A stretch of DNA of 64,000 nt from an uncultured Rhodospirillaceae bacterium. GTDB taxonomy: Bacteria; Pseudomonadota; Alphaproteobacteria; UBA8366. A model generated the notes under the pieces. It saw nothing but the letters and a program-made list of their open reading frames with translations. It was not told the DNA's origin and ran no database searches. The translations under genes were made by a program, and so were the position numbers. Positions 23,241 through 62,239 of the stretch are shown here, in pieces; position 1 is the first letter of the stretch, and each line of letters starts with the position of its first letter. Location: the NCBI GenBank assembly GCA_964408805.1, contig CAYPAV010000005.1:4476-68475 (forward strand). The letters run 5' to 3'.

Positions 23241-23374
23241 TTTCCGCTCCGGAGCGATGGAAATTTGATCCACTCCGCCCGACGACGAACGTTCGGTTTT
23301 CGCCCAATCGACCCCGAAGATTGACTCCCTCGGCGCTTCTCCGGCACCCTATCCTATTGACGAGGGGAGGCCCG

Positions 23375-24190
23375 ATGAAGCTCGGGAGATACTTCGCCGC
23401 TGGATTGGTACTCGCCGTCGCCCTTGGTTGGACGGTGCCGGCGGATGCGGCCAAGCGGGTTGCCCTGGTCATCGGCACGGATAAGTACGCCACGCTGCCC
23501 AACCTCAACAATGCGGCGACCGATGCTAGGGGCATCGCGGCAAAGCTCAAATCGCTCGGCTTCGACGTGATCCTCCGGCGGAATGCCAGCCGCCGGGATT
23601 TTGCCCGCGCGCTCGATGATTTCGAGGGCCGGTTATCGCAAGCCGAGGTCGGGCTGGTGTTCTATGCGGGCCACGGCATTCAGGCGCAGGGCAAGAACTG
23701 GCTGATCCCCGCGGATGCGAGGGTCGAAACCGAAGCCGACCTGCGTTACGAAGGAATTTCCGCCAACGACTTTCTCGAAGCGATGGAAAGGGCCGGAACA
23801 CAGCTCAATATCGTTATTCTCGATGCCTGCCGCGACAACCCCTTGCCCAAGAGATCGCGATCGGCCGCGCGTGGGCTTGCGGTGCCGATCATCCCGGCGG
23901 GTATCAAGGGAACGGCAATCCTCTACTCCGCGGCACCCGGTCAGACGGCGCAGGACGGACCGACGGGCGGACATGGCGTGTTTACCGGTGCGTTGCTAAG
24001 GGTCTTGGACGAGCCGGGGTTGAAACTCGAAGGCGTGTTCAAGAAAACGGCCATGCAGGTCTCGGCGGCGACCAACGGCAGGCAGGACCCGTGGATCAAT
24101 TCGTCGGTGAAGGGCGATTTCTACTTCCGCGAAGCGAGCAGCCGACCTCGCGGGAAAGTCACGGCACCCACGCCCACTGGCCCCTCATAG
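23375..24190 (+). CDS. exported caspase-like peptidase (C14), paralog A; N-terminal part ends at an in-frame TAG
   Basis: The RBS gaggggagg precedes the ATG at 23375. The signal peptide reads MKLGRYFAAGLVLAVALGWTVPADA. The catalytic His is in FYAGHGIQ (codon 23672) and the Cys in ILDACRDNP (codon 23828). Confidence 0.85.
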   Translation: MKLGRYFAAGLVLAVALGWTVPADAAKRVALVIGTDKYATLPNLNNAATDARGIAAKLKSLGFDVILRRNASRRDFARALDDFEGRLSQAEVGLVFYAGHGIQAQGKNWLIPADARVETEADLRYEGISANDFLEAMERAGTQLNIVILDACRDNPLPKRSRSAARGLAVPIIPAGIKGTAILYSAAPGQTAQDGPTGGHGVFTGALLRVLDEPGLKLEGVFKKTAMQVSAATNGRQDPWINSSVKGDFYFREASSRPRGKVTAPTPTGPS

Positions 24191-24208
24191 AGCCCCGACA
24201 AGGAAACC

Positions 24209-24874
24209 GTGTTCTGGCAATCGATCAAGGACAGCAAACAAGCGGGCGATTACAAAGCCTATCTTGCTCAATTTCCGAACGGAACATTCGCCGGCTTGGC
24301 CCGGAGCCGCCTCGCGGCCTTGAAGCCGGCAAAAGTCGCGTCTCCGAAACCACCGACATCAACCCCGAAAATCCCGACCCGAACGACCGCCGCCACACAG
24401 GAAACGCTCTTCTGGCAGTCGATCAAGGGAAGCACCAATCCGGCCGACTACCAGGACTACCTCATGGCGTTCCCAAAAGGCACCTTTGCGCGCCTGGCCA
24501 GGCGGCGAATCAATGAGTTGAACCGCAAGAAGGTGGCGGTGGCCCGCCCTTCAAGACCGACTCGGTCGCGGCGGATCGAGAAACTGCGCGGCTACCACAT
24601 TTGGGTCCAGACCACGAACAAGCAACGCGGCCTGACGTACTGCCGGCAATTGAAGGAGGCCGGGCTGATCGTCTATTGCTGGGCCGGAAGAGGTTCGATA
24701 TCGGACGACAATATAATGCTCAAATGCTCAACCCTGCCGTCGGATACCGGAGAGATCATTCAGGAATTCCTGGGGGCAGGAAAACTGAGGGTGTGGGACT
24801 GGCGCAAACACAAGGATTACGGCGCCAAGGTCTGCGGCAAGTACCACGCCATCACGATCCAGACGATCAATTGA
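24209..24874 (+). CDS. C-terminal part of caspase paralog A (two FWQSI...FPxGTFAxLA modules plus a Cys-rich domain); same frame as 23375..24190
   Basis: It begins at a GTG 18 nt after the TAG, in the same frame, preceded by aaggaa. The modules at 24209-24325 and 24407-24523 match those inside paralogs B and C. Confidence 0.7.
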   Translation: MFWQSIKDSKQAGDYKAYLAQFPNGTFAGLARSRLAALKPAKVASPKPPTSTPKIPTRTTAATQETLFWQSIKGSTNPADYQDYLMAFPKGTFARLARRRINELNRKKVAVARPSRPTRSRRIEKLRGYHIWVQTTNKQRGLTYCRQLKEAGLIVYCWAGRGSISDDNIMLKCSTLPSDTGEIIQEFLGAGKLRVWDWRKHKDYGAKVCGKYHAITIQTIN

Positions 24875-27308: not shown

Positions 27309-27380
27309 GACACGAAATCTCAAAACGACGATTGGGACGACCCGACGGTGATCGGGTTCCAGGAAAATTCAGGAGGCACC

Positions 27381-28562
27381 ATGATTTCGAAATTCACCAC
27401 CGTCTATCCGGGGCATATCGACATGCCGGACCGAGGCCAGGACGCAACGCCGGCCAACGACCGGCACTTCAACAACGACGAGCTCGCCAGCGTTTTCGAG
27501 AAGTCAGAGGCGGTCGCGAAAACCATGGACGAGACGGGCTGGCATTCGTTGTGGTTCGCGGAGCACCACTTCCAGCGGGAAGGCTACGAGGTCATTCCCA
27601 ACATCCTGATGCTGGCGGTGCATCTCGCCCATATGACCGAGCGGCTGAAATTCGGCTGCGGGTTCAATATCTGCCCGATGTGGCATCCGCTGCGCCTCGC
27701 CGAGGATTTCGCCACCGCCGACATCATGACCAAGGGACGCACCATCTTCGGCGTCGGCCGCGGCTATCATACCCGCGAGGTCGAGACCTTCGGTGCGCCG
27801 ATGCAGGACGGTGATGCGAACCGCGAGCTTTTCGAGGAACAGGTGGAGATCATCTTCAAGGCCTTCAACGAGGAGGCCTTCTCGCACAAGGGCAAGCATT
27901 ACACCCTGCCGCCCGAAGTGCCCTATCGCGGTTACGATTTGAAGGAAATCACCCTGGTGCCGCGCCCCGTGAACCGGCCCGTCGAGTGCTGGCAGCCGGT
28001 CGTCAGCGCCAGTCCCCGCGGGCTCGATTTCATGATGAAAAACGGTATCCGGGGCTTCGTCGGCGGCGGTGCCGCGACAATGGAAGAGGGGCCGATCAGG
28101 GCGTTCCAGGCTGCCGCCGGCCGGGTTGGCCGCGATCTGGCGCTTGGCGAGGATATTTGCATCGGCATCCATTTCTACGTCGCCGAGACACGCGAGCAGG
28201 CGATCCGGGAGATCACGCCCTACTTCGAGGAACACGCCAAGATGTTCGCGACACTCGGCTTCCTGCCGGGCATGACCCCGGAACAGGTCGCAGCGGTCTC
28301 GAAGCGCGGCGGCTGGGATGGCGCCGGCGTGCCCACGGTCGAACACTACATGGAGGGCGGCTCCTGGTTCGCCGGCACAAGCGACGACCTGATCGAGTAT
28401 TTGAAGGGCCTCGAGGAGAAGTTCCCGGGCCTCGAATACATCAACCTCAGCACGCCCATGACGACACCGAAGACCAAGATGCTGGAGCTCTTCCAGCAGG
28501 TCTCGGAGGACGTGATGCCGCATTTCGGCGGCGGCGCCAAATTGGCGGCGACGGGGGACTGA
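27381..28562 (+). CDS. LLM-class flavin-dependent oxidoreductase (luciferase-like monooxygenase)
   Basis: GWHSLWFAEHHFQREGYEVIPN...GRTIFGVGRGYH. The start is re-set to the ATG at 27381, after aggagg. Confidence 0.85.
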   Translation: MISKFTTVYPGHIDMPDRGQDATPANDRHFNNDELASVFEKSEAVAKTMDETGWHSLWFAEHHFQREGYEVIPNILMLAVHLAHMTERLKFGCGFNICPMWHPLRLAEDFATADIMTKGRTIFGVGRGYHTREVETFGAPMQDGDANRELFEEQVEIIFKAFNEEAFSHKGKHYTLPPEVPYRGYDLKEITLVPRPVNRPVECWQPVVSASPRGLDFMMKNGIRGFVGGGAATMEEGPIRAFQAAAGRVGRDLALGEDICIGIHFYVAETREQAIREITPYFEEHAKMFATLGFLPGMTPEQVAAVSKRGGWDGAGVPTVEHYMEGGSWFAGTSDDLIEYLKGLEEKFPGLEYINLSTPMTTPKTKMLELFQQVSEDVMPHFGGGAKLAATGD

Positions 28563-28578
28563 CGCGGAAGTAACGACG

Positions 28579-29784
28579 ATGGAACCGCTCGCCGATCTTT
28601 CGGACGGCAAGACCTTTCGGGCTGGGTTTCCCCATGCCAGCCTGACTTGGCTGCGCGAAAATGCACCGGTCTATTGGCATCCGCCGACCGAGGCCACGCC
28701 GGACGGCGAGGGGTTCTGGGTCGTCAGCCGCTACGACGACGTGAACAAGGTATTTCGCAATCCCAAGACCTTCTCCTCCGACAAGGGCGGCGACCGGCGG
28801 GCCGGCGGTACGGGCATCAACGACGACAGATCGGCCGGGCTGATCCTGAACTTCATGGACGATCCGAAACACCGCCGTGTCCGAAGCCTGGTGACCCAGG
28901 GTTTCACGCCTCGAACGATCGGCCGGCTGGAAGCGGAACTTCGCGCGATCACCGGCCGGATCCTCGACGACATCGGCGACGGAGAGAGCATCGATTTCGT
29001 CCTGCGGGTTGCCCGCGAATTGCCGCTGCAGGCGATCTGCATCATTCTCGGCGTGCCGGCCGAGGACCGCACCCGGCTCGTCGATTGGGTTGATATGGGG
29101 ATCGCCAACCCAGACAAGGCGATCATCGCGCCCGAATACATGCGGAAGGTCGCGAAATACGCCGACGGTCTGATTGAGGAGAAACGCCGCGCGCCGACCG
29201 ACGATATTCTCTCCGTCATCACCCATGCGACGTTGGACGAGGAACCGGAGGGCCGCCTGACCAACCAGGAACTGCGGCTGTTCTTCAATTTGCTGTTCCC
29301 CGCGGGGGTCGAGACGACGCGAAATTCGATCGGCTCGGCCCTGCTCACCTTCATCAAACAGCCGGATCAATTGGCGAGGCTCCGCGCCGACCCCAGCCTG
29401 ATGAAAACGGCGGTCGAGGAGATCCTCCGCTGGACCACGCCGTCGGTCTACAAGCGACGGACCGCGACGAAGAACACCAAGCTCGGCGATGTGCGCATCC
29501 GCGCGGGCGACAAGGTCACGATCTGGGAGATGTCCGCCAATCGCGACGAACGCGTCTTCGGCAATCCCTTTGAATTCGACATCACGCGCGACCCGAACCC
29601 GCACATCGCCTTCGGCGTCGGCGTCCATGTCTGCCTCGGCGCCGCCCTGGCCCGGCTCGAGCTCGCCATCATGTTCGAGGAACTGCTGAAGCGCTTCGAG
29701 ACCTTCGAACTCGCGGGCGATTACGGTTGGGTCGAGAACAATCGATTGCTGGGCCTGACGCAACTGCCGGTGCGGATGCATTAG
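28579..29784 (+). CDS. cytochrome P450
   Basis: Heme-thiolate loop FGVGVHVCLGAALARLE, an EILRW (ExxR) motif, and an I-helix-like FPAGVETT. Confidence 0.92.
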   Translation: MEPLADLSDGKTFRAGFPHASLTWLRENAPVYWHPPTEATPDGEGFWVVSRYDDVNKVFRNPKTFSSDKGGDRRAGGTGINDDRSAGLILNFMDDPKHRRVRSLVTQGFTPRTIGRLEAELRAITGRILDDIGDGESIDFVLRVARELPLQAICIILGVPAEDRTRLVDWVDMGIANPDKAIIAPEYMRKVAKYADGLIEEKRRAPTDDILSVITHATLDEEPEGRLTNQELRLFFNLLFPAGVETTRNSIGSALLTFIKQPDQLARLRADPSLMKTAVEEILRWTTPSVYKRRTATKNTKLGDVRIRAGDKVTIWEMSANRDERVFGNPFEFDITRDPNPHIAFGVGVHVCLGAALARLELAIMFEELLKRFETFELAGDYGWVENNRLLGLTQLPVRMH

Positions 29785-29908
29785 GCCGGACGGCTTAGAT
29801 TAATTGATCATCCGCGCATCAATTCGGCGCTGGAGCGTGCCCCGGAATTCATTTGAAATCGATGCCGGTGACGAACTTCAATAAGGAACTGATCCCGGGA
29901 CGCATGCC

Positions 29909-31045
29909 ATGGTAATTGTCGGCCTCTTGTTTATCGTTGCCGCGGGTTGGTTCGGTCTGGTCATGGCCGTTGATATATATGCGGCCATGTCGGCCGGCGA
30001 TCCGTCGAGCGCATGGCTGCCGGGCCTCGGCCTATTGGCCGTGATTGGCGTATTCATCTGGTTGGCGAGAGAAGCAAGGCGAGACAATGGTCGAGCGGTG
30101 GTTAGATCGCGAAATCTGGACACGCTCCGAGACTTGAATTGCACGGGAATCTACCGGGTAAAGGGGGCGGAAGCCGACGTTACCCTGCAATTCGTCAAGA
30201 CGCGGGATCGACCATACGGTTCAAGGGGCCGGGTTCGGCTGATTAACGAATCGCCGGCAATCACCGGTCCTTTCGGCGGCGTCGCGCCGGCGCGAGGCGG
30301 GTGGCGTATAGAAAACTCCAACCCCAACGATCCTCATATATTTATAGACCTGAGCGGCCCGAAACCCGTTTCGGCATCCGGCATCGGGCTCATGCTTGGC
30401 CCTTACTACTCGGGAGAATGCGATAAGAACGAGGCCCTCGTTCGTTTGGTTCAAGATAGCGGGAAAGACACCGAAACCATTTTCAAATTGATCCACGAAC
30501 CGGGCGGTCGATTGAACATCGCAGACGAGGCCTTGGAGGCATGGCTGAAACACGCCGAAACGCCCCGGACGGACGGTCTCTATCGGGGAACCGTGGCGGA
30601 GTGGTGGTGGGACAGCGACAGCGAGAAACATACGGGTGATGACGTCTATTTAGCTGTCTTGTTCGAGGTTGATGCGGGCGGCAATGCCGGTACCCTCAAG
30701 GGAATAAACCGACAGGTTCGCATTGCTTCGGAGACACCGGGCCGCATCGCCTTCAAGGGGACATGGCGGCGGGGCGAGGACGGATGTCTAAGCGTCCAAA
30801 TAGTCCCCATGTCCCGTTTCGCGATCCGCGGCTTCGATCCCGGCGACGTGAAGTATGGCGGCCACTTCATCGGAGAGGATGACATTCTGTCATCGGGCCA
30901 AATGCGTTTGGAAACCTTCGAGGACTGGGTGACGTTTTCGGCCATGGATGAAGACGGAACTCTTGGCCTCCAATTCGATGGCGAGAGCGAACCGTCGCAA
31001 CTTTTGAAGAACGAACCGGACGAAATCAAAGAGTGGCTGGCCTGA
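29909..31045 (+). CDS. hypothetical membrane-anchored protein (two N-terminal TM helices); no family recognised
   Basis: A 378-aa ORF. Its N-terminus reads MVIVGLLFIVAAGWFGLVMAV...LPGLGLLAVIGVFIWLA. The composition is visibly more A/T-rich than the flanks. There is no convincing RBS. Confidence 0.55.
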   Translation: MVIVGLLFIVAAGWFGLVMAVDIYAAMSAGDPSSAWLPGLGLLAVIGVFIWLAREARRDNGRAVVRSRNLDTLRDLNCTGIYRVKGAEADVTLQFVKTRDRPYGSRGRVRLINESPAITGPFGGVAPARGGWRIENSNPNDPHIFIDLSGPKPVSASGIGLMLGPYYSGECDKNEALVRLVQDSGKDTETIFKLIHEPGGRLNIADEALEAWLKHAETPRTDGLYRGTVAEWWWDSDSEKHTGDDVYLAVLFEVDAGGNAGTLKGINRQVRIASETPGRIAFKGTWRRGEDGCLSVQIVPMSRFAIRGFDPGDVKYGGHFIGEDDILSSGQMRLETFEDWVTFSAMDEDGTLGLQFDGESEPSQLLKNEPDEIKEWLA

Positions 31046-31175
31046 TGAGGAATATTTTGGATCCGATCTTGAGAGGCCGTTGTCCACCAAATGTCCGCGG
31101 TGGAACTTCCGTATTCCGATCTTCCACACCGGTTCCCGCGCAGCCATTCGCCAGACAGAATTTAGGAGAACCATC

Positions 31176-31940
31176 ATGAGCGACGTCGTGAAAATTGAAC
31201 GCGAGGGCGCGATCGCCATTCTCCGGCTGAATCGCCCGGAAGCCCTGAATGCCCTCACCTTGGAACTTGGCCGGGCCATCGCCGCGAATTTGATTGAACT
31301 CGACGCCAAGGACGGGGTCGAGGGCATCGTGCTCACCGGGGCCGGCGAGCGCGCGTTCTGCGCCGGGGTCGATCTCCGCGAGGCCCGCACCATGCAGATC
31401 GCCGATATCGAGGATTGGTTCGGCACCGCCTGCAACATCTATCGCCAGATTCTGCTGACCGAGAAACCCGTGATCGCCGCCTTGAACGGGGTGACCGCGG
31501 GCGGCGGCTTCCAGATGGCCCTCGTCTCCGACCAGCGCGTCGCCCATCCCGACGTCCGCATGGGGCAGCCGGAGATCAATGCCGGCATCCCGAGCATCAT
31601 GGGCTCCTATTGGATGAGCCTCCATCTCGGCTGGTCGAAGAACCAGGAGCTTTCCATGACCGGGCGGCTGATGGAGGCCGACGAGGCCGAGGCGCTTGGC
31701 CTGATCAACCATCTGGTCCCCCGCGACGAGGTCATCGCCAAGGCCGCCGAGATCGCCGCGACCCTGGCCGCGAAACCCGCGACCGCCTGGCGGCGCACCA
31801 AGGCGCGCTTCCGCGAAATCGCGCTCGCCGGCTTCGACGAGGCCTTCCGCGCCGGTGTCCTCGGCCAGCAGGAAGCCTACGCGAAGGGCGAGCCGCAAGC
31901 GATCATGGACGCCTTCCTGGCCAAGAGCGGCAAGGGGTAG
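31176..31940 (+). CDS. enoyl-CoA hydratase/isomerase (crotonase) family protein
   Basis: VKIEREGAIAILRLNRPEALNAL...VLTGAGERAFCAGVDL...IAALNGVTAGGGFQMAL. The start is re-set to the ATG at 31176, after aggaga. Confidence 0.9.
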   Translation: MSDVVKIEREGAIAILRLNRPEALNALTLELGRAIAANLIELDAKDGVEGIVLTGAGERAFCAGVDLREARTMQIADIEDWFGTACNIYRQILLTEKPVIAALNGVTAGGGFQMALVSDQRVAHPDVRMGQPEINAGIPSIMGSYWMSLHLGWSKNQELSMTGRLMEADEAEALGLINHLVPRDEVIAKAAEIAATLAAKPATAWRRTKARFREIALAGFDEAFRAGVLGQQEAYAKGEPQAIMDAFLAKSGKG

Positions 31941-32041: not shown

Positions 32042-34459
32042 TTGATGATTTACGTCGGACTTCGTCGGCTATGCGCCATCTTCCTTTTGGCGGCCGGGCT
32101 TTCGGCCACGCTCAATGCCGTCGCGGCGGAGACGGGCCGCGGGCTGACGCTGCCGCTGCGGGCGAGCGAGACGCGGGGTGCCGCGATCACGGAGGAAGTC
32201 ACGCTCTACGGCTCCTCCCATGCAATGGTCATCGGCATCGACGATTACACGGATGGCTGGCCCCGCCTCTCGAAGGCGGTGGAGGACGCCCGCAGGGTCG
32301 CAGAGGAGCTTCGTCGCAAGGGTTTTCGCGTCACGTTGAAGACGAATACCAAATCGAGCGATCTTGACGGCGTCTTGAAGGAATTTTTCGCGATCAAGGG
32401 GGCCGATCCCAACTCGCGTCTCTTTCTCTGGTACGCCGGCCACGGCCACACGGAGCACGGCGAGGGCTTTCTCGTACCCGCCGACGCGCCCCGGCCCGAA
32501 GCCGCCGGGCTGTTCCGTTTGAAGGCACTGTCGCTTCGGCGGATCGGCGAATATGTGCGCCTGGCCCGATCGAAACACGTCTTCTCGGTGTTCGACTCCT
32601 GTTTCTCCGGCACCGTCTTCGATAGCGCCCGCGGCCTGCCGCCCGCCACGATCACGCGGGCGACCACGCTGCCGGTCAGGCAATTCCTGACGTCGGGCGA
32701 CGCCGGCCAGACGGTCTCCGACGACGGCGCCTTTCGCGAGCTCTTCCTCCGCGTGCTGCGGGGCGAGGAACGCGCCGACGCAAATGGCGACGGCTATGTG
32801 ACGGCGGCCGAGATCGGTTTGTTTCTGACCGACCGGGTGACCAACCTGACACGGTCCAAACAGACCCCGCGATACGGCAAGCTTCGCGACAAGGACTGGG
32901 ACCGGGGCGATTTCGTGTTTGCGCTTTCGAAATCGTCGAGACCCGGATCGACGGCCCAGCGCACCCCGCCGACGGCTGCCGGCACCTCGCCTGAAATCCT
33001 GTTCTGGCAGTCGATCCAGAACGCCACCAATCCGGCCGTCTTCGAGGCCTATCTAAACCAGTTCCCGAACGGCACCTTCGCCGCGCTCGCACGGATAAAG
33101 ATTGCGGAATTGAAAGGTCGTTCGACCGCCGCCCTGACACCGCCCGCCGCGACCGCGCCCTCCGGCACGGCGGGAATACTGTCGGTTTCCGACATCGTGG
33201 GTCGAATCAAGCATGCGGTCGTCGGCGTAGCCGCGTCGGCGAAGGACGGAAAGACCGAAACCGTTGGAAGCGGCTTCATCGTCTCGCCGCTGGGCCATGT
33301 CGCAACCAACAATCACCTCATCGACAAGGCATCGAAGATCGTCGCGTTTTTGGCCGACGGAACACGCTTGCCCGTAACTGTCACGGGGCGGGACAAGCGG
33401 ACGGATATTGCCGTGCTGAAAGTGGCACAGCCTCCCGCCGGCCCGCCGATAAGATGGGCTGCGGCCGAACTCGGCGGGCGCGTGGTTGCGGTGGCAATGT
33501 CACCCGCCGGTGGAAACGTCATCATCGCAACGGGCAAGGTGGAACAGGTCGGTGTTGCCACCCAATACAACCAGTTCATCCAAATCAACACCGCGATAGA
33601 ACCGCGTCATTCGGGGGCCCCCGTTCTGAACGACCGGGGCGAGATCGTCGGTCTCGCCACCGCAATCGAACAAAAGAAAAAGACCAAGAGACAGATCGGC
33701 TTCGCGATTCCGACGAAAGTCATGAGATCCGTGGTTCGGCAGTTGATTGAATTTGGCCGCGTGAAGCGCGGCTGGCTTGGCGTTCAAATTCAAAAGGTCA
33801 CCGACGAACTCGCCAATACGATCGACCTTGGCAAGGCGCGGGGCGCCCTCGTCGCCCGCGTCAGCGAGAGCAGTCCGGCCAAGGCGGCCGGCTTGAAATC
33901 TGGCGACGTGATCCTCGACTTCGCGGGTATCGAGATCGTTGAAATGCGCACGCTCCCCGGGATCGTCGCCGCACAGCCGATCGGGGGAACGACCGACCTC
34001 ACGGTATGGCGTGACAAGCGTCGGCTCGGTTTGAAGGTAAGGCTTGAGGAACTGACGGACGCGAAGATGGCGGCCCTTTCGAAGACCACCCCGAAAACCA
34101 CCCCGACTCCGAAGACCGGCCAACAACTGGACGAATTCGGCTTCACGCTGTCACCGGGCCCGAAAAAAGGCGTGATCATCACCAAGGTTGCAAAGAAATC
34201 AGTCGCCGCGACGAAAGGTTTGCGCGCCGGGGACATCATTCTCGAGCTGAACCAAAAACCCGTTTCCACGCCAACGGGCATCGTCGACGGATTAGCTGAA
34301 AGCCGTCGACGCGGCCGTAAGAGTGTCCTCGTGCTGGTGGAAGGCCAGGGCGGTCTACGATTCGTCGCGTTGAAACTAGCCGCTGGAGCAACGAGGCAAG
34401 ACGAAGCCGAGCGCGAGGAGACGGAAACCGAGACGGAGACCGAGGAGAATAGCGACTAA
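32042..34459 (+). CDS. exported caspase-like (C14) domain fused to an HtrA/DegP-type serine protease and two PDZ domains, paralog B
   Basis: A signal peptide is present. The C14 dyad is WYAGHGH (His 32441) and FDSCFSG (Cys 32600). The FWQSI module lies at 32996-33115. The S1C triad context is ATNNHLI (His 33314), DIAVLKV (Asp 33404) and PRHSGAPVL (Ser 33611). The PDZ-like segments read GALVARVSESSPAKAAGLKSGDVILDFAG and GVIITKVAKKSVAATKGLRAGDIILELN. The start is either TTG at 32042 or ATG at 32045. Confidence 0.85.
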   Translation: MMIYVGLRRLCAIFLLAAGLSATLNAVAAETGRGLTLPLRASETRGAAITEEVTLYGSSHAMVIGIDDYTDGWPRLSKAVEDARRVAEELRRKGFRVTLKTNTKSSDLDGVLKEFFAIKGADPNSRLFLWYAGHGHTEHGEGFLVPADAPRPEAAGLFRLKALSLRRIGEYVRLARSKHVFSVFDSCFSGTVFDSARGLPPATITRATTLPVRQFLTSGDAGQTVSDDGAFRELFLRVLRGEERADANGDGYVTAAEIGLFLTDRVTNLTRSKQTPRYGKLRDKDWDRGDFVFALSKSSRPGSTAQRTPPTAAGTSPEILFWQSIQNATNPAVFEAYLNQFPNGTFAALARIKIAELKGRSTAALTPPAATAPSGTAGILSVSDIVGRIKHAVVGVAASAKDGKTETVGSGFIVSPLGHVATNNHLIDKASKIVAFLADGTRLPVTVTGRDKRTDIAVLKVAQPPAGPPIRWAAAELGGRVVAVAMSPAGGNVIIATGKVEQVGVATQYNQFIQINTAIEPRHSGAPVLNDRGEIVGLATAIEQKKKTKRQIGFAIPTKVMRSVVRQLIEFGRVKRGWLGVQIQKVTDELANTIDLGKARGALVARVSESSPAKAAGLKSGDVILDFAGIEIVEMRTLPGIVAAQPIGGTTDLTVWRDKRRLGLKVRLEELTDAKMAALSKTTPKTTPTPKTGQQLDEFGFTLSPGPKKGVIITKVAKKSVAATKGLRAGDIILELNQKPVSTPTGIVDGLAESRRRGRKSVLVLVEGQGGLRFVALKLAAGATRQDEAEREETETETETEENSD

Positions 34460-34506: not shown

Positions 34507-35175
34507 TCAGTTCTTGGTGAAGACGACGCCGTCGAAGCGCTCTCGCGTGGCGATTTCTTCGACCGTACGGCGGTTCAGCTTGGTTAACTGCTTGACCGGC
34601 TTGCCGAGCGGCACCACCGCCGCTACCGCATGGTCTTCGGGAAGCCCCAATAGGGCTTGAACTTTTGGCTCCTGAGCCGCCGCCAGCGTCGTGATCGTTC
34701 CGCCGAAACCGGCCGCCCGCGCGCACAGCAGGACGTTCCAGACGAAAGGATAGATCGATGCCCCGCTGATCACGCCGATGCGGGACAGGTCCTGATCCAT
34801 CGAGGCAACCAGCTTCAAATCAACCGCGAAAACCAGCACGACGGAAGCTTCGGCGAAAGGCTTTGTCAGGTGCGGGTTGGCGGGCGTCCTTGCGATTTCT
34901 TCGGGTGTCACCTTGGTCGGCAAGACCGCGTTCCAGGGGCTCTCGCCCGCCTCTATCTGGGCGACGTAGCGCTTCGCGGCGGGCTCGGCGAGGCGGCCGA
35001 GTGCGGTGCGGGTCTCTTGGTCGCGAACGACAATGACGCGGTTGCCCTGGCGGTTGCCGCCGCTGGGTGCGAACCGCGCGTTTTCGAGGATGTCGTAGAG
35101 CACGTCGTCGGGCAGCGGTTCGCCGCTGTAATCGCGCGCGGCGAAGGTCGTCCGCATGACTTCGTGAAGTTCCAT
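34507..35175 (-). CDS. nitroreductase family protein
   Basis: MELHEVMRTTFAARDYSGEPLPDDVLYDILENARFAPSGGNRQ. The start is re-set to the ATG at 35175, after gggagg. Confidence 0.85.
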   Translation of the reverse strand: MELHEVMRTTFAARDYSGEPLPDDVLYDILENARFAPSGGNRQGNRVIVVRDQETRTALGRLAEPAAKRYVAQIEAGESPWNAVLPTKVTPEEIARTPANPHLTKPFAEASVVLVFAVDLKLVASMDQDLSRIGVISGASIYPFVWNVLLCARAAGFGGTITTLAAAQEPKVQALLGLPEDHAVAAVVPLGKPVKQLTKLNRRTVEEIATRERFDGVVFTKN

Positions 35176-35329
35176 CGCTCTTCCTCCCACTTCATATGAC
35201 CGGGACATCATCTAGGCATGACGCTACCTTGACGATTGCCACCGGCACAAGACCGGTGCCGGCCCGGCTTGCCAGGCCTGCTTGGGGCCGCCATCTTGGT
35301 TACGGGTATACCAGAGAGAGAAACCGGCG

Positions 35330-36004
35330 ATGGACCCGGAGATCAAGGCGGCGCTCGATAAACTGTTCTCGGCCGATTCGGCGCTCTACCAGGACCGCGG
35401 GTTCCAGCGGCGGATCGGCTGGGGCCGAAAGCCGGCCTTGGTCAATATCGACCTCGCCAACGCCTGGACACGCGAAGGCTACCCCTTCACCTGCGAGGGC
35501 ATGGAGACCGTGATCCCCGCCGTCCAGCAGGTGCTAGCGGCGTTTCGCGCCAAGGGCCTGCCGATCGTCTTCACCACGACCGCCTACGAGATCATCGAGG
35601 GCGAGCATTCCGACATGGGGCTTTGGGGGCAAAAGATCCCGGCCGAAGCGCTGGTCGCCGGTACCGAGACGGTCGAGATCGACGCCCGCCTCGAGCTCCG
35701 ACCCGACGAGCTCCTGATTGTAAAAAAACAAGCCAGCGGCTTTCGCGGCACCAATCTCGCCAGCTATCTCACCGCCGCCGGCGTCGACACGGTCGTGATC
35801 ACCGGAGCAACCGCGAGCGCCTGTGTTCGCGCCACCGCCGAGGACGCCATCGCCGATGGGTTCCGACCGATCGTGGTGCGCGAATGCATCGGCGACCGGA
35901 TCGCGGGGGCTGTCGAATGGAACCTGTTCGACATCGACGCCAAATTCGCCGATGTGGAACCACTGGAAGCGGTGCTGGCGCACCTGCAGCGAAACGAAGC
36001 CTGA
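35330..36004 (+). CDS. isochorismatase-family cysteine hydrolase (N-carbamoylsarcosine amidase-like)
   Basis: PALVNIDLANAW...IVKKQASGF...VVITGATASACVRATAEDA contains the catalytic Cys context. The start is re-set to 35330. Confidence 0.85.
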   Translation: MDPEIKAALDKLFSADSALYQDRGFQRRIGWGRKPALVNIDLANAWTREGYPFTCEGMETVIPAVQQVLAAFRAKGLPIVFTTTAYEIIEGEHSDMGLWGQKIPAEALVAGTETVEIDARLELRPDELLIVKKQASGFRGTNLASYLTAAGVDTVVITGATASACVRATAEDAIADGFRPIVVRECIGDRIAGAVEWNLFDIDAKFADVEPLEAVLAHLQRNEA

Positions 36005-36024
36005 ACCGAAGGAGGAGAGACCCC

Positions 36025-36441
36025 ATGGACATCAAACGAGCCAATGCGCGCTCGACCAAAGCGGCGCCGGAAGATTGTTTCACGGGCCAGGTCTGGCAGG
36101 ACCCGGTCATCGTCGGCGAGGCCCCCTCGCGGATGCGCGCCACCAACGTCTCCTTCTGCCCCGGAGCGCGGACCGCCTGGCACTCCCATCCGGTGGGCCA
36201 GACGCTGTTCTGCGTCACCGGCATCGGACGGGTACAGTTGGAAGGCGAGCAGGTACAGGAGCTCCACCCCGGCGACACGGCGGTGATCCCGCCCGACACC
36301 CGCCACTGGCACGGCGCCGCCCCCGACCGTCTCTTCATCCATCTCGCGATGTCGGAGGTGAGCGACAGCGGCGAGGGTACCGCCTGGTTCGAGAAGGTCA
36401 GCGACGCCGATTACGGCAAGCCCCCGGCACCGATTGGCTGA
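36025..36441 (+). CDS. cupin domain protein
   Basis: VSFCPGARTAWHSHPVGQTLFCVTGIGRVQ...PPDTRHWHGA. The RBS ggaggagaga precedes the ATG at 36025. Confidence 0.85.
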   Translation: MDIKRANARSTKAAPEDCFTGQVWQDPVIVGEAPSRMRATNVSFCPGARTAWHSHPVGQTLFCVTGIGRVQLEGEQVQELHPGDTAVIPPDTRHWHGAAPDRLFIHLAMSEVSDSGEGTAWFEKVSDADYGKPPAPIG

Positions 36442-36459
36442 CGGGAGGTCGCGCGAACC

Positions 36460-37212
36460 CTAAAGTGCGGCCAAGAATTTCCCTAACGCCTCGTTCACGA
36501 TTTCCGGCTGGTCGACGTTCACTCCGTGGCCGGCATCCGGCACCACGACATTGACGGCCCCGGGAATCCGGTTCGCCATATAGGCGGAGCCTTGGAGGTA
36601 ATGGCTGTCACCCTCGCCGATCACGATCAAGGTGGGCACCTTGATATGGGGCAGGCTGTCGATCACGCGGGCGTCCACCTGGCTCAGGATTCCGCGCGCC
36701 GCATCGGCCAGGCCCTGGGCCGAGCCCTGGGTGCTGATGGCGACCTCGGAGCCGCCGCCAAGCGCCGCGAGGCCACCCTCCTCCAACGTCCGGGCCCGGT
36801 TTTTCGCCCGTTCGTTCCAGGCCTCCCGCGAGCTGTCACTGCGATAGCCGGGACCGCAGCCCTGAAGCACTAGCGCCTCGACCCGTTCGGGATAGGCGAC
36901 ATTGAACGCCAGCGTCATGAACCCGCCAAGCGAGTGCCCGGCGATCACCGCGCGCTCGATTTCGAGATGATCGAGCAGGCCGCGCATATCCTCGACCGTC
37001 AGACTCTGGCTGTATTGGTCGGCCGCCGGACAGTCGCTTTGGCCGTGGCCACGCATGTCCCAGGTAACGAACCGGTAGCGGTCGGAGAAGGTCTCCACCT
37101 GTCCCCGCCAGCTTCCCGTCGAGGCGCCGAACCCGTGGGTGAGGAGGATCGGCTTGCCTTCCCCGGTATCCTCGTAATAAAGGCGAACGCCGTCGCGTGT
37201 CAGATGCGGCAT
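36460..37212 (-). CDS. alpha/beta hydrolase (Ser nucleophile)
   Basis: ILLTHGFGAS... and the nucleophile elbow AGHSLGG. Confidence 0.85.
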   Translation of the reverse strand: MPHLTRDGVRLYYEDTGEGKPILLTHGFGASTGSWRGQVETFSDRYRFVTWDMRGHGQSDCPAADQYSQSLTVEDMRGLLDHLEIERAVIAGHSLGGFMTLAFNVAYPERVEALVLQGCGPGYRSDSSREAWNERAKNRARTLEEGGLAALGGGSEVAISTQGSAQGLADAARGILSQVDARVIDSLPHIKVPTLIVIGEGDSHYLQGSAYMANRIPGAVNVVVPDAGHGVNVDQPEIVNEALGKFLAAL

Positions 37213-37228
37213 ATCGATGTCTCCTGGT

Positions 37229-37561
37229 TCAATCCACGATGAATAGCTTGACGCCGGTCTCGGTCGAGGAGCGATGCGGCGCGTCGCCGAAATCCGAGAC
37301 CTGATAGCTCATCCCCGGCTTCAGGGTAAAACGGCGGCCGTCCTTCAGCTCGCTCACCAACTCGCCTTCCAACACATAGAGAACATGGCCCCGATCGCAC
37401 CAATGATCGGCGAGATAGCCCGGCGAATACTCGACCGCGCGGACCCGAAGATCGCCGGCCTCGAAGGTCCGCCAGGTGGCGTGACCGGTCTCGCCCGGAT
37501 GTTCCGTCGCGGGGATTTCCGACCAATCTGTAACCGTGAAGGAAAGTGTTGGAATCTTCAT
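37229..37561 (-). CDS. DHCW-motif cupin fold protein (copy 2 of a tandem pair)
   Basis: MKIPTLSFTVTDWSEIPATEHPGETGHATWRT...GYLADHWCDRGHVLYVLEG. Confidence 0.8.
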   Translation of the reverse strand: MKIPTLSFTVTDWSEIPATEHPGETGHATWRTFEAGDLRVRAVEYSPGYLADHWCDRGHVLYVLEGELVSELKDGRRFTLKPGMSYQVSDFGDAPHRSSTETGVKLFIVD

Positions 37562-37929
37562 TCGATGGCCCCTTCCGGTGCATTGTCGCCTGGCGGGCTA
37601 TCGACGATGAAGAGTTTCACGCCCGCCGTCGTCGAGGCCCGATGGGCGGCATCGCCGAAATCCGAGACCTGGAAGCTCATCCCCGGGGTCAAGGTATAGC
37701 GCCGGCCGTCCCGCAATTCGCAGTCCACATCCCCCTCCAGCACGTAGAGAACATGACCGAGCCCGCACCAGTGATCGGCCAGATATCCCGGCGAATAGTC
37801 GACCACGCGCACCCGAAGCTCGCCCGCCTCGAAGGTCCGCGAAGTGGCGTGTCCGGTCTCGCCCGGTTCCTTCGATTCCGGGAGCCCCGCCCAATCGGTG
37901 ACGGTGAAGGGCAGCGTGGGAATTTTCAT
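37558..37929 (-). CDS. DHCW-motif cupin fold protein (copy 1 of a tandem pair)
   Basis: MKIPTLPFTVTDWAGLPESKEPGETGHATSRT...GYLADHWCGLGHVLYVLEG. Its stop overlaps the downstream copy's ATG. Confidence 0.8.
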   Translation of the reverse strand: MKIPTLPFTVTDWAGLPESKEPGETGHATSRTFEAGELRVRVVDYSPGYLADHWCGLGHVLYVLEGDVDCELRDGRRYTLTPGMSFQVSDFGDAAHRASTTAGVKLFIVDSPPGDNAPEGAIE

Positions 37930-38063
37930 GGCCGGTCTCCTCCCCCTATCGATATCGGGGCGGCGCCCGGTCTGACAATCCCGGGCCCATTTTCAGACCC
38001 ATCATCGACCTTCCCCAAATTCCTCTAATAGCTAGAAATATCCATTTTAATATATCTCTTTAA

Positions 38064-38092
38064 TTGCAATAAATTCACTACAAGAGTATGGT
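38064..38092 (+). promoter_or_regulatory. sigma70-like promoter candidate
   Basis: ttgcaa-N17-tatggt sits inside a strikingly A/T-rich stretch (38030-38100), about 30 nt upstream of the ATG at 38121. Confidence 0.3.
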
Positions 38093-38120
38093 TAACAATA
38101 AACCAGGGGAGGAACGGACA

Positions 38121-38549
38121 ATGACATTTACTCAGAAACGGTTTCTCGCGGGTGGGCTCGGCGCCCTGATACCGATCGCCATCACCCTCTTACTCGTCGA
38201 CGCGGCGACAATAGCGGAGATGCTCGACACCGAGGATGGCGGGTACCAGATCCTCGGTTGGGGCGTGAAATCGCTGTTGTTGTTCCTGATCGGCGGGGTC
38301 TGGGTCTATTTCGACAGCATGGCGACCGACCTGAAGAAAGCGTTCCGATTGGGCATGGCGGCACCGGCGGTCATCACGACGACCTTGGCCTCGAACAACA
38401 TCGATTTCACGCAGGAAAAAGCGGCCGCGATCGCCGCCCCCCGCGTAATCACGGCGGGATTCACCCTGACCAAAGGCACACCGGCACCACCGGCGCAGGG
38501 TGCGGGGAAGTGTTTCATAAAAGGGCTTCTGGGCAAGCCCTGCAGGTGA
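38121..38549 (+). CDS. hypothetical membrane protein
   Basis: MTFTQKRFLAGGLGALIPIAITLLLV...SLLLFLIGGVWVYF contains two hydrophobic helices. The RBS ggggagg precedes the ATG at 38121. No family was recognised. Confidence 0.5.
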   Translation: MTFTQKRFLAGGLGALIPIAITLLLVDAATIAEMLDTEDGGYQILGWGVKSLLLFLIGGVWVYFDSMATDLKKAFRLGMAAPAVITTTLASNNIDFTQEKAAAIAAPRVITAGFTLTKGTPAPPAQGAGKCFIKGLLGKPCR

Positions 38550-38553
38550 CCGC

Positions 38554-39735
38554 CTATTCGCTGGCCAGGCGGGTACTCATGCCAGCCTGGGCCTGTCGGT
38601 TCATGTGACGCGACACCAGCAGGCTCAACATCTCGCTGGAGCCGTCGCCGATCTGGAAGAGCTTGGTTTCGCGATAATAGCGCTCGACCGGATGATCCTT
38701 TGTCAGGCCGTGGCCGCCGAGGAACTGGACCGCCTGCTGCGTCACCTCGGTGCAAACCTGGCTGCCGAACAACTTCGCCATCGACGCCGCCACGGGGGCG
38801 TCGTCGGTCTTGGCCTCGGCGAGAGCCGCCGCGTGGTAGGAAAGCTGACGGGCCGCCTCGATCTTGGCGCCGAGATCGGCGGCGCGAAAGCGGAGCGCCT
38901 GGAACTGGGCGAGCGGCTGGCCGAACTGCTCGCGCGTCTGCATGTAGTTGAGCGCATAGTCGATCGCTCCCTGGGCGACACCGGCGCAGCGCGCGCCATA
39001 GATCGAGCGGGCCTTCGCGAACCCCGTCTGCATATACTTGAAGCCCTCGCCCTCGCGGCCGAGGAGCGCACTGGCGGGCACCCGGCAATCCTCGAAGATC
39101 AGCTCGGCGATCGGGTTGGCGGTATGGGCAATGGTCTCGAAGGTGCGGCCGACGGAGAAGCCGGGGGCGTCCTTTTCGATCAGGAAGAGGCTGATGCCGC
39201 CGCCGCGCGGGGCGTCCCGATCGGTGCGCGCGAACAGCACGATCAGATCCGCATGAGCCCCATTGGTGATGAAGATTTTCCGGCCGTTGATCACCCAATC
39301 ATCACCGTCTCGCTTGGCGAAGGTGGAGATGGAGGACGCGTCGGAGCCGGAATCCGGCTCAGTCAACGCGAAGGCGGTGATAATTTCACCGGTGGCGGCC
39401 TTCGGCAGATAGGTCTGCTTCTGGGCTTCGGTGCCGATCGCCAGTAGCGGACCGGTGAGCAAACTCACCACATGGGTCGACGCCGAAAACCAAACACCGG
39501 CGATTTCCTCCAAGATGACCGCACATGACAGAATATCGAGCCCGGGACCGCCGAATTCGGTCGGGATGTCGAGCCCCAGGAACCCGCGCTTCGCCATCAT
39601 CATCAGGATGTCGCGGGAAAGAACGCCGCCCTTCCCTTCGACCTCGGCGGCAATCGGCGCCAGTTCCTCCTGGGCGAATTTCCGGGCCGCGGATTTCAGT
39701 TCGCGCTGGGTATCGGTCAGACGATAGTTCGACAT
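38554..39735 (-). CDS. acyl-CoA dehydrogenase
   Basis: MSNYRLTDTQRELKSAARKFAQEELAPIA...ALTEPDSGSDA...QIGDGSSEM. The start is re-set to the ATG at 39735. Confidence 0.9.
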   Translation of the reverse strand: MSNYRLTDTQRELKSAARKFAQEELAPIAAEVEGKGGVLSRDILMMMAKRGFLGLDIPTEFGGPGLDILSCAVILEEIAGVWFSASTHVVSLLTGPLLAIGTEAQKQTYLPKAATGEIITAFALTEPDSGSDASSISTFAKRDGDDWVINGRKIFITNGAHADLIVLFARTDRDAPRGGGISLFLIEKDAPGFSVGRTFETIAHTANPIAELIFEDCRVPASALLGREGEGFKYMQTGFAKARSIYGARCAGVAQGAIDYALNYMQTREQFGQPLAQFQALRFRAADLGAKIEAARQLSYHAAALAEAKTDDAPVAASMAKLFGSQVCTEVTQQAVQFLGGHGLTKDHPVERYYRETKLFQIGDGSSEMLSLLVSRHMNRQAQAGMSTRLASE

Positions 39736-39754
39736 ATTCTTCCCTTCCGCCTCG

Positions 39755-40399
39755 CTATTTCTTGAGCCGCGACCGGTTCGGGGTAACGACGTGCTCCTGA
39801 TAGGCCGGCCGCCCCGCCATCCGCTCGTACCAGGCCTCGACATTGGGATGCGAGGGCCGCTCGCCCTCCGGCGTCCAGGTCATCCAGCGATCGGTCAACG
39901 AGCCCGCGGGGATATCCGCCATGGTCAGCCGATCACCGCAGAGAAAGTCCCGATCCGCCAGGTGGGCGTCGAGAATGTCGTACATCTTGGTCGCTCCGGC
40001 GATCGCCGCGGAAACGGCATCGGGATCGCGCTCGGCTTCCGATAGCCGGAAGAACTGATCGAGATAGACCCCGTTGAAGGCGGCAAGGTTGAGCGAGCTC
40101 CAATCCATCCATTTCTCGGCCTCGGCGCGGCCCCGATGACCCTCGGGACACATCTCGCCCGGGCTGTGCTTGGCGCAGAGATAGCGCACGACCGCGCCTG
40201 ACTCCCAAAGCGTAAATCCGTCCTCCTCCTCAAGGGTCGGCAGCCGGCCCATCGGGTTTTTTGCCCGGTATTCCGGATCGTCGTTGCCGCCGAATTCTCC
40301 GCCCCAATCTATGCGTTCATGCTCCAGTCCCAGCTCGCCGACACACCACATCGCCTTGATCACATTGGAGCCATCGTTCCGTCCCCAGATTTTCAACAT
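39755..40399 (-). CDS. glutathione S-transferase family protein
   Basis: MLKIWGRNDGSNVIKAMWCVGELGLEHERID...NPMGRLPTLEEEDGFTLWESGAVVRYL. Confidence 0.85.
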   Translation of the reverse strand: MLKIWGRNDGSNVIKAMWCVGELGLEHERIDWGGEFGGNDDPEYRAKNPMGRLPTLEEEDGFTLWESGAVVRYLCAKHSPGEMCPEGHRGRAEAEKWMDWSSLNLAAFNGVYLDQFFRLSEAERDPDAVSAAIAGATKMYDILDAHLADRDFLCGDRLTMADIPAGSLTDRWMTWTPEGERPSHPNVEAWYERMAGRPAYQEHVVTPNRSRLKK

Positions 40400-60571: not shown

Positions 60572-62239
60572 GTGACGAGACTCTCTGCGATTTCGGCTCT
60601 TCTGTCTCTCGGCTTGTTCTTCACGGCCTCGGCGGCCGTCGCGAAACAGGGCGGCGTCTCCGTGAAACTGCGGCAAGGCATCACCGAGGACGCCCCGATT
60701 TCCGAGGAAGTGGAACTTTACGCCCGGTCCTATGCGCTGGTCGTCGAGATCGACAAATACACCCATGGCTGGCCTCGGCTTTCGATGGCGGTGAAGGACG
60801 CCAAGGCCATTGCCGCGGCGCTGACGAAGAAGGGCTTCGAGGTGACGCTTGTCCTCAATCCCAAATCGGCCGCGCTGAACCAGGCCTTCGAGGAGTTCTA
60901 CATCCTCAAGGGCGAGAACCCGGACGCACGGCTCTTCGTCTGGTTCGCGGGTCACGGTCACAGCGAGCGCGGCGAGGGTTATCTCGTCCCAACGGACGCG
61001 CCGAAGCCGAGCAAGAAGGGTCTCTTCCGCCTCCGCGCGCTTTCGCTTCGCCGGATCGGCGAATTCGTTCGCCTAGCGGAATCGAAGCACGCCTTCGCGG
61101 TCTTCGACAGCTGCTTCTCGGGAACGGTTTTCGACAGCGCCCGTGCGATGCCGCCGGCCGCCGTCACCCGCGCGACGACGCTTCCGGTGCGTCAGTTCCT
61201 GACCTCGGGCGATGCCGGCCAGACGGTGTCCGACAACGGCGCCTTTCGCGAATTGTTCATACGAGCCCTTTCGGGCGACGAGAAGGCCGACGCCAATGAC
61301 GACGGCTATGTGACGGCGAGCGAGATCGGTCTGTTCCTGACCGATCGGGTCACCAACCTCACCGAATCGAAGCAAACCCCGCGCTATGGCAAGCTCCGCG
61401 ACAAGGACTGGGATCGCGGGGATTTCGTCTTCACCCTGCCGCAAGCGGCGCCGACACCGGTGGCGCGCGTATCCGCGACCAACCAATCGGGCGGCGGTAC
61501 CACGTCAGAGACCGCGCGGCTGCAACAGGAAAGCCTGTTCTGGGAATCGATTAAGGACAGCAACGACGCGAGCGCCTTCGAGGCCTATCTTTCGCAGTTC
61601 CCGAGAGGCACCTTCGCGCCGCTGGCACGGGTCAAGCTGAAGGCCTTGAAATCAGGGAATGCGGGGCGGAAGCGCGCCCTCGTCGACGAGCGGCGCCAGC
61701 TGGAGGCGGAGCGCAGACGATTTGCGGACGAAGCGGCGAGACTGCGGCGCGAGGGAGCGGAGAAGCTGAAAGCCGACCTTGCCGCCGAGCGCCGACGCCT
61801 GGCGGATGAGGAAGCGGCCCGCGCCGAACGCCGCCGGACGGAGCAAAGCGTCGCCCGGCTCGCACCCGCGGCCCGATCACGGCCCGGCGTCGCGCCCAAT
61901 CTCCTCACCGGGGCCGAAATACGAACCCTGCTTTCCGATAACACGGGCGTGTACACCGCTCCCCGCAAAGATCTGACTCTTTCGGTCACTTTCGATGCCG
62001 ATGGTCAAATGCGGGGATCGCGCGAAGAGGACGGGCGACGCGATTGGGGCAAATGGTGGATCGAGGACGACCGCTATTGCCGAAAATGGGACAAATGGGC
62101 GAAGCAACGCGTGTATTGCTTCTCCATTTCACTTTCCGGCGAAACCGCTACGCATATCGGCGCGATGGGGACCAAGGTCTACGACATGGAGTTGGAATCC
62201 GTGCCCGACAGCTTGCAAGGCCGGGCGGGGGATGATTGA
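60572..62239 (+). CDS. exported caspase-like peptidase (C14) with an FWESI module, an Arg/Glu coiled coil and a Trp/Cys-rich C-terminal domain, paralog C
   Basis: A GTG at 60572 gives the signal peptide MTRLSAISALLSLGLFFTASAAVA. The dyad is WFAGHGH (His 60953) and FDSCFSG (Cys 61112). The module lies at 61532-61651. The ORF-track start at 59309 is an antisense-overlap artefact. Confidence 0.82.
   Translation: MTRLSAISALLSLGLFFTASAAVAKQGGVSVKLRQGITEDAPISEEVELYARSYALVVEIDKYTHGWPRLSMAVKDAKAIAAALTKKGFEVTLVLNPKSAALNQAFEEFYILKGENPDARLFVWFAGHGHSERGEGYLVPTDAPKPSKKGLFRLRALSLRRIGEFVRLAESKHAFAVFDSCFSGTVFDSARAMPPAAVTRATTLPVRQFLTSGDAGQTVSDNGAFRELFIRALSGDEKADANDDGYVTASEIGLFLTDRVTNLTESKQTPRYGKLRDKDWDRGDFVFTLPQAAPTPVARVSATNQSGGGTTSETARLQQESLFWESIKDSNDASAFEAYLSQFPRGTFAPLARVKLKALKSGNAGRKRALVDERRQLEAERRRFADEAARLRREGAEKLKADLAAERRRLADEEAARAERRRTEQSVARLAPAARSRPGVAPNLLTGAEIRTLLSDNTGVYTAPRKDLTLSVTFDADGQMRGSREEDGRRDWGKWWIEDDRYCRKWDKWAKQRVYCFSISLSGETATHIGAMGTKVYDMELESVPDSLQGRAGDD

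Follow-up and report, generated by a model that had tools for sequence, protein, structure and literature searches.

A rare fusion of a C14 peptidase with an HtrA-type protease and a PDZ pair in an uncultured alphaproteobacterial population

The fusion gene and its occurrence

The stretch of DNA analysed here (the window) comprises 64,000 nucleotides of contig CAYPAV010000005.1 (assembly GCA_964408805.1, positions 4,476 to 68,475 of the forward strand) from an uncultured Rhodospirillaceae bacterium, and on its + strand, at 32042..34459, lies a gene whose product joins in one chain a signal peptide, a Peptidase C14 domain, a three-helix module, an HtrA protease domain, two PDZ domains (PDZ1 and PDZ2) and an acidic tail, in this order. 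The reading frame is open without internal stop from TTG 32042 or ATG 32045 to the stop codon at 34457-34459, which gives 805 codons from the former and 804 from the latter; ATG 32045 is the likelier start because a GGGA motif stands 7 nt upstream of it, and it agrees with the 804-residue public protein (P0360/P0001) to which the product is identical. This exact protein (P0360) is present in the NCBI, JGI, ENA and Logan sequence collections, in one of which it bears the name 'S1-C subfamily serine protease'. An earlier note on this DNA, made from the letters alone, had proposed a single exported polypeptide combining both proteases with two PDZ domains, and this holds: the frame is open, the Pfam profiles Peptidase_C14, Trypsin_2 and PDZ all match above their gathering scores, a signal peptide can be read from the sequence, and the five catalytic codon positions that the note had named (32441, 32600, 33314, 33404 and 33611) are exact.

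At least 23 contigs, up to 356 kb long and drawn from independent samples and different assemblers, code for exactly this protein, and on them genes for an enoyl-CoA hydratase and a nitroreductase constantly flank the fusion gene. A contig of a metagenome-assembled genome (MAG) from NCBI matches the window with 99.98% identity across 18.7 kb, and the DNA of the gene is identical in 11 of the 12 copies compared, the sole variant, from GCA_035092285.1, being a nonsynonymous AAG to GAG change at 33326 that gives K429E in the N-terminal HtrA barrel. The carriers are therefore one near-clonal population. The unusual divergence of the HtrA protease core, described below, and an in-frame stop in a neighbouring C14 paralog might be taken as signs that the junction is an assembly chimera or that the gene is a decaying pseudogene. 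However, the 2.4-kb open reading frame (ORF) is uninterrupted on all these contigs, with samples and assemblers differing and neighbours constant; GC content runs smoothly across the C14/HtrA junction, where no break was seen; both folds are modelled as intact, and related C14-PDZ fusions occur in other species. Such an artefact, which the earlier note had wished to see excluded, is thus effectively refuted, and the fusion is a genuine single gene.

The architecture was searched for in 5.8 billion protein clusters, 1.84 billion representatives, GTDB genomes, JGI metagenomes and 72,556 plasmids, and within these databases the succession of C14, HtrA and two PDZ domains was seen only in this one uncultured alphaproteobacterial population. 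In the word-indexed search of the 5.8 billion clusters the protein's own cluster scored 1753 bits and the next match 628 bits, and for the relatives among the top 120 only the N-terminal ~45% of the fusion protein was matched. Likewise, in the best 150 matches among the 1.84 billion representatives only residues ~5-420 were aligned, all with strong C14 matches, a ranking that distant C14 and HtrA fusions with weak C14 scores would escape, and independent fusions in other phyla are possible. No C14 domain was found among the protein matches to the HtrA half, a result that is weak alone as the fusion protein itself was also missing from these matches. DNA-level scans for the trypsin domain across 185,579 species-representative genomes and the JGI metagenomes gave nothing above 41% identity, no C14 domain lay near any of 80 genomic HtrA loci, and none of 1013 plasmid records found by tblastn covered at least 80% of the query.

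In the literature searched, no description of a C14-HtrA fusion was found, and a survey of microbial PDZ proteins names no caspase partner in its text or supplements. What is known are exported modular bacterial C14 proteins on the one hand and HtrA proteases on the other, and what is new is the combination of C14, HtrA and two PDZ domains in this order. The novelty suggested by the earlier note stands insofar as the architecture is very rare and functionally uncharacterised, its general biological weight being limited by its occurrence in a single clonal population. It has to be narrowed in another respect, because catalogues of multi-domain bacterial C14 proteins go back to 2012 (Asplund-Samuelsson et al. 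2012, PMC3501461; Klemencic & Funk 2017, PMC5756287), and entries of the 2012 supplement already include a Trypsin|C14 'serine protease' of Rhizobium etli (YP_472296.1, 848 residues) and a PDZ|C14 protein of Geobacter sp. M21 (PMC3501461). According to those entries, each of the two unites a bacterial C14 domain in a single chain with a trypsin-fold protease or with a PDZ domain, as the fusion protein does, but in reversed order, with the accessory domain N-terminal. As listed there, the R. etli protein differs further in that its protease domain is an S1A 'Trypsin' (PF00089) and not HtrA, it has no PDZ pair, and its C14 catalytic His is replaced by Gln.

Domains of the fusion protein

The N-terminal 360 residues form a cassette of signal peptide, C14 domain, Pro/Thr linker and a three-helix module of ~45 residues. 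The Sec-type signal peptide (residues 1-29, MMIYVGLRRLCAIFLLAAGLSATLNAVAA followed by ETG; 32042..32128, + strand) was read from the sequence, in which an RR n-region, a hydrophobic core and an AVA-A site can be recognised; it appears as a lone helix in the AlphaFold model, and the product is presumably exported by the Sec route to the periplasm. The Peptidase C14 domain (residues ~57-295; 32210..32926, + strand), paracaspase-like and delimited by Pfam, by the predicted local distance difference test (pLDDT) and by its MALT1 matches, scores 52.6 bits against Pfam Peptidase_C14 PF00656 (gathering score 21.4) over residues 60-271. Its dyad is intact, with His134 (codon 32441, CAC) in WYAGH134GH and Cys187 (codon 32600, TGT) in FDSC187FSG, the glycines G133, G135 and G190 are invariant in an alignment that mixes C14 and DegQ sequences (A1), and pLDDT exceeds 90 over residues 30-300.

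The domain is modelled with a caspase-hemoglobinase fold. MALT1 is both the best PDB sequence match of the C14 domain (E 2e-6) and its best fold match by Foldseek, where the MALT1 caspase domain 3v4o_A gives a template modelling (TM) score of 0.70 and E 7e-13. In the alignment, Asp82 and Asp185 fall opposite MALT1 Asp365 and Asp462, which we take to be the S1-pocket residues that bind the P1 arginine, so that cleavage after Arg or Lys would be expected from these two acidic residues, MALT1 Glu500, the third pocket residue, falling outside the alignment. The likeness to MALT1 (PDB 3v4o, 3uo8) comprises the YAGHG and D-x-C motifs, the alignment of the two Asp residues with these putative pocket positions, and the fold. 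On the other hand, identity is only ~18-19%, and MALT1 is a cytosolic protein with death and Ig-like domains, whereas the fusion protein is apparently exported and bears an EF-hand-type insert and the three-helix module. Because no death or Ig-like domains were found by Pfam on either side of the C14 domain, where the signal peptide and the three-helix module stand instead, the C14 part resembles paracaspases in its fold alone, and the most fitting name is that of an orthocaspase-type bacterial C14 protein.

With orthocaspases ('prokaryotic metacaspases'), as far as they are covered by the two catalogues, the fusion protein shares an N-terminal p20-type C14 domain with a His/Cys dyad and variable C-terminal accessory domains (PMC3501461; PMC5756287). 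These proteins are described there as abundant in Alphaproteobacteria and commonly have an N-terminal hydrophobic helix or signal peptide, and of their catalogued partners FGE-sulfatase, PG_binding_1, Sel1 and TPR are also found in relatives of the fusion protein. The difference is that the accessory part of the fusion protein is itself a protease, and that no C14 domain followed by HtrA and a PDZ pair was seen in those parts of the catalogue that were searched.

Inside the C14 domain lies an EF-hand-type loop, DANGDGYVTAAE (residues 246-257; 32777..32812, + strand), which follows the canonical DxNxDGxVxxxE pattern from D246 to E257 and is flanked by helices in the model. Pfam EF-hand profiles match it below threshold only, N248 and G251 are at least 90% conserved across the family, and the embedded loop suggests that the C14 peptidase could be under the control of Ca2+. 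The module that follows the linker (residues 317-359; 32990..33118, + strand), defined by the model and by family conservation, has the pattern FWQSI...YL..FP.G.FA.LA and ends in FPNGTFAALA; its FWQSI codons begin at 33002, and its three helices are predicted with pLDDT 96-97. No Pfam or NCBIfam model matched it. It follows the C14 domain, singly or as a tandem, in nearly all members of the C14 family, including both paralogs in the window.

The fusion protein is a member of a large and modular alphaproteobacterial family of exported C14 proteins, in which the cassette is constant and the C-terminal domains are interchangeable. Relatives of the cassette number in the hundreds, with 55-76% identity, and two further cassette paralogs are found within the same window. 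In these relatives the C-terminal Pfam domains include FGE-sulfatase, SH3_3, Sel1/TPR, PG_binding_1, SPOR, OmpA, solute-binding and HlyD-like folds. Caspase homologs are numerous in bacteria, yet to our knowledge hardly any has been characterised, the role of the C-terminal domains included.

In the fusion protein this C-terminal position is occupied by an HtrA (S1C) protease domain (residues ~381-575; 33182..33766, + strand), delimited by Pfam, PDB matches and the model. It scores 84.8 bits against Pfam Trypsin_2 PF13365 (cut-off 27.6) over residues 409-538, and its triad, His425 (33314), Asp455 (33404) and Ser524 (33611), aligns with those of MucD, a DegP-like protease and DegQ, which are also the PDB matches of the HtrA half (E 1e-48 to 1e-42). 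Its nearest relatives are alphaproteobacterial DegQ/'Do' proteases with 40-44% identity, and the comparison clearly points to derivation of the HtrA half from a DegQ-type HtrA by gene fusion. The NCBIfam Do-family model TIGR02037 covers residues 399-769 with E 1.8e-78, but its 264.4 bits remain below the cut-off of 416.2, and the fusion protein lies far below every cut-off of the DegP, DegQ and DegS equivalog models.

These matches bear on the possibility that the protein is in essence a periplasmic quality-control HtrA with an N-terminal accessory, the C14 part being regulatory or vestigial. Additional N-terminal domains are known from human HtrA1 and from MamE, the Do-family model matches the HtrA half over its entire length, and the public name of one source points the same way. 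This is nevertheless unlikely, given that the cassette is the best-conserved part of the protein in identity, dyad and pLDDT, that the HtrA core is the most divergent one, as its Do-family score also indicates, and that the constant element of the family is C14 and not HtrA. A comparison with MamO-like pseudo-proteases was also made and rejected, the homology being generic only (53 bits against a cut-off of 800).

The order of protease, PDZ1 and PDZ2 and the TNNH, DIAVLKV and S-G contexts are those of DegQ, DegP and MucD (PDB 3pv2, 4ynn, 3stj, 8f0a, 8k2y), from which the fusion protein departs by its serine box, the state of its loops, a 370-residue N-terminal addition and the acidic tail. As a measure of this divergence, columns at least 90% conserved in the 120 nearest DegQs were taken as invariant, and those in which the fusion protein keeps the consensus residue were counted. 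The whole protease core keeps 54 of 115 such residues (47%; DegQ controls, minimum 0.80, median 0.98), and the losses are uneven: 25 of 34 are kept in the N-terminal barrel with the His and the Asp (residues 404-470; controls, minimum 0.79, median 0.97), only 21 of 62 in the C-terminal barrel (residues 471-562; minimum 0.82, median 1.00), and four of 15 in the N-terminal segment (residues 371-403), for which the controls reach down to 0.07 with a median of 1.00. Loop LA is deleted (~34 residues, with 15 conserved columns gapped), loop LD has a 3-residue deletion and substitutions, and loop L2 reads EQKKKTKRQ in place of FSPSGGSVG.

The serine box is RHSGA, as the earlier note had observed and as the alignment confirms, with the Ser kept, whereas GNSGG is present in 276 of 280 HtrAs (116 of the 120 nearest DegQs and all 160 other HtrA loci). 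This puts an Arg at the oxyanion-hole Gly position (-2) of the core. In chymotrypsin-fold proteases the Gly at -2 gives its backbone NH to the oxyanion hole, and substitutions there cut activity by orders of magnitude. Because the triad is kept and the oxyanion-hole and loop elements are rewritten, both catalysis and regulation of the HtrA domain are probably altered, and the core is probably remodelled and weakened, with reduced serine-protease activity. The 'complete HtrA/DegP' of the earlier note is therefore right as to the triad and the predicted fold, and too generous as to the core, in which less than half of the invariant residues survive.

The predicted fold deserves a separate comment. 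AlphaFold run on a clean HtrA-only alignment (A2) gave a normal protease-PDZ1 fold with a mean pLDDT of 85.9 (80-95), and this model superposes on DegQ/DegP protease-PDZ1 units with TM 0.85-0.87 and a root-mean-square deviation of 2.7-3.0 Å; together with the C14 model, it supplies the structure prediction that the earlier note had proposed as a check. A decay of the trypsin fold had been considered and was rejected, since the pLDDT of 27-56 and the spurious helices that suggested it came from the mixed alignment A1.

The PDZ domains have changed much less. PDZ1 (residues ~576-668; 33767..34045, + strand) matches Pfam PDZ_2 and keeps 33 of 40 DegQ-invariant residues, and PDZ2 (residues ~693-779; 34118..34378, + strand) matches Pfam PDZ as well as PDZ_6, and keeps 21 of 22. 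The profiles PDZ_2 (69.7 bits) and PDZ (70.3 bits), with matches in the stretches 578-668 and 696-756, exceed their gathering scores, pLDDT is above 90 in each domain, and the count for the entire pair is 56 of 64 (88%; controls, minimum 0.78, median 0.98), which suggests that selection has held the PDZ pair, and not the core, close to the DegQ pattern. The chain ends in an acidic extension, ...EAEREETETETETEENSD (34379..34456, + strand), which is absent from the 120 free DegQs and disordered in the models, and which may be a sorting or interaction motif.

Sister proteins and the working of the fusion protein

Four sister clusters at 90% identity (P0002, P0003, P0005 and P0009; 577-592 residues) have C14 domains 60-67% identical to that of the fusion protein, a public example being MBC8451809.1, a 'PDZ domain-containing protein' from Rhodospirillaceae-type MAGs. 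They share the cassette, the linkers, a DegQ-type PDZ pair and the acidic tail with the fusion protein, but the linker is followed directly by PDZ1, from an R-x-WLGV boundary, and then by PDZ2 and the tail, the protease domain of ~200 residues being missing; the identity of their PDZ domains to those of the fusion protein is 36-43%. In a neighbour-joining tree the PDZ pairs of the sisters and of the fusion protein form one clade with 74/100 bootstrap support. They share five derived positions (control median 0, maximum 3) and a C-terminal extension that none of the 120 DegQs has. These comparisons lend moderate support to a history in which C14 and HtrA were fused once, in an ancestor, and the sisters later lost the protease domain, and because four sister lineages exist without that domain, the serine protease would be dispensable in the C14-PDZ design. 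Their acidic tails end in ENSD, DNNE, ENSE or VNND, and a C14-only protein (P0059) also has an acidic tail, ending EEEEENSD.

The self-contained activation cascade that the earlier note had suggested found no support, and the sister lineages, which keep C14, three-helix module, PDZ1, PDZ2 and tail without the protease domain, speak against it; the comparative data agree better with the alternative given there, a PDZ-gated orthocaspase. With moderate confidence, we read the fusion protein as a C14 protease of the periplasm that is targeted by its PDZ domains and carries a remodelled HtrA core. The constant cysteine-protease cassette would be the effector, and the C-terminal slot would serve for recognition of a ligand or substrate, as it may elsewhere in the C14 family, having been filled in this lineage by fusion with a whole DegQ-type HtrA. 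Exposed peptide termini in the envelope might be the ligands of its PDZ domains, which would thereby bring substrates to the cysteine protease or hold them near it. The HtrA core would then act as a scaffold, or retain a weak or differently regulated second activity, with no obligatory step in a cascade of two proteases.

Several observations weigh against this reading. With its full triad and a normally modelled HtrA-PDZ1 unit, the serine protease may well be active, and the N-terminal barrel is fairly well kept (25/34), which speaks against free decay. The PDZ pair of the fusion protein is also nearer to free DegQs (48% identity) than to the sisters, long-branch attraction could account for part of the 74% bootstrap, and independent captures of the PDZ pair are possible. 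Finally, with one substitution in 12 copies of a clonal population, natural variation carries too little signal for a test of selection.

The main rival, which amounts to the cascade of the earlier note and which we consider doubtful, is that both catalytic domains are active and coupled. HtrA trimerisation and PDZ ligand binding might bring the paracaspase-like domains together, with proximity as the trigger of their activity, or else an Arg/Lys-specific C14 domain might cut the Lys/Arg-rich linkers or L2 (EQKKKTKRQ) and thereby set the HtrA unit free or switch it on. The former variant would suit the dimerisation that MALT1 and initiator caspases require and the obligate trimeric state of HtrAs, as the K/R sites in the linkers and in L2 would suit the latter. 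Dyad and triad are both intact, both folds are confidently predicted, and the gene was found whole and unvaried on at least 23 contigs. Nevertheless, the Arg in place of the oxyanion-hole Gly, where almost all other HtrAs have GNSGG, argues against this rival, as do the deletion of LA and the rewriting of the activation loops LD and L2. Of the 15 invariant residues in the N-terminal segment that takes part in HtrA trimer contacts only four remain, the sister lineages do without the protease domain, and the full-length model has no confident inter-domain contacts (predicted TM score 0.48). Should both domains prove active and coupled, this would be the first single-chain relay of a cysteine and a serine protease in the bacterial envelope.

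A bolder version, which we regard as improbable, would make the PDZ-gated HtrA oligomer a sensor of envelope-stress peptides and at the same time the platform on which the paracaspase-like domains are clustered and activated, both proteases being active. If true, it would be a bacterial single-chain analogue of the proximity-induced activation of caspases and MALT1. Eukaryotic cell death is thought to have inherited both caspase-type and HtrA/Omi proteases from alphaproteobacteria, and such a platform would offer a 'Rosetta-stone' link between the two families.

The favoured PDZ-targeted C14 protease has implications of its own. C14 with a full HtrA, C14 with a PDZ pair and C14 with other binding domains form a natural series, which suggests that the PDZ pair is what selection has favoured and yields a testable model of ligand-targeted periplasmic cysteine proteolysis. 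The HtrA core, with its triad kept and its GNSGG altered, is a rare case between function and loss that can inform which HtrA elements are dispensable, and hence a natural experiment on the part of an HtrA that is needed once it is recruited as an accessory module.

Gene neighbourhood and paralogs

A scan of the locus for promoters and terminators was uninformative, and no conserved operon partner was found beside the fusion gene or beside the sister gene P0003, both of which lie among unrelated metabolic genes. In the window, the stretches 27348-31940 and 34507-39843 encode a luciferase-like monooxygenase, a P450, the enoyl-CoA hydratase, the nitroreductase, an isochorismatase and cupins, together with an alpha/beta hydrolase and an acyl-CoA dehydrogenase, that is, catabolic and redox genes unrelated to the fusion. 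The neighbourhood of P0003 is similar in kind but not syntenic.

The first of the two paralogs in the window (23321-24874, + strand) has a Peptidase_C14 match with E 2.8e-35 and is of the 'DACRDNP' type. A single in-frame TAG (24188-24190) interrupts its Pro/Thr linker, ...TGPS-stop-SPDKETVFWQSIKD..., and the next ORF continues in frame with two FWQSI-type modules (24209-24440); it could be a pseudogene, a split gene or the result of a sequencing error. The second (~60600-62239, + strand) is 63% identical in the C14 cassette and consists of C14, an FWESI module, an Arg/Glu-rich coiled-coil stretch and a C-terminal domain of ~150 residues without assignment, the C-terminus matching P0053, and it shows that the cassette is reused within one genome.

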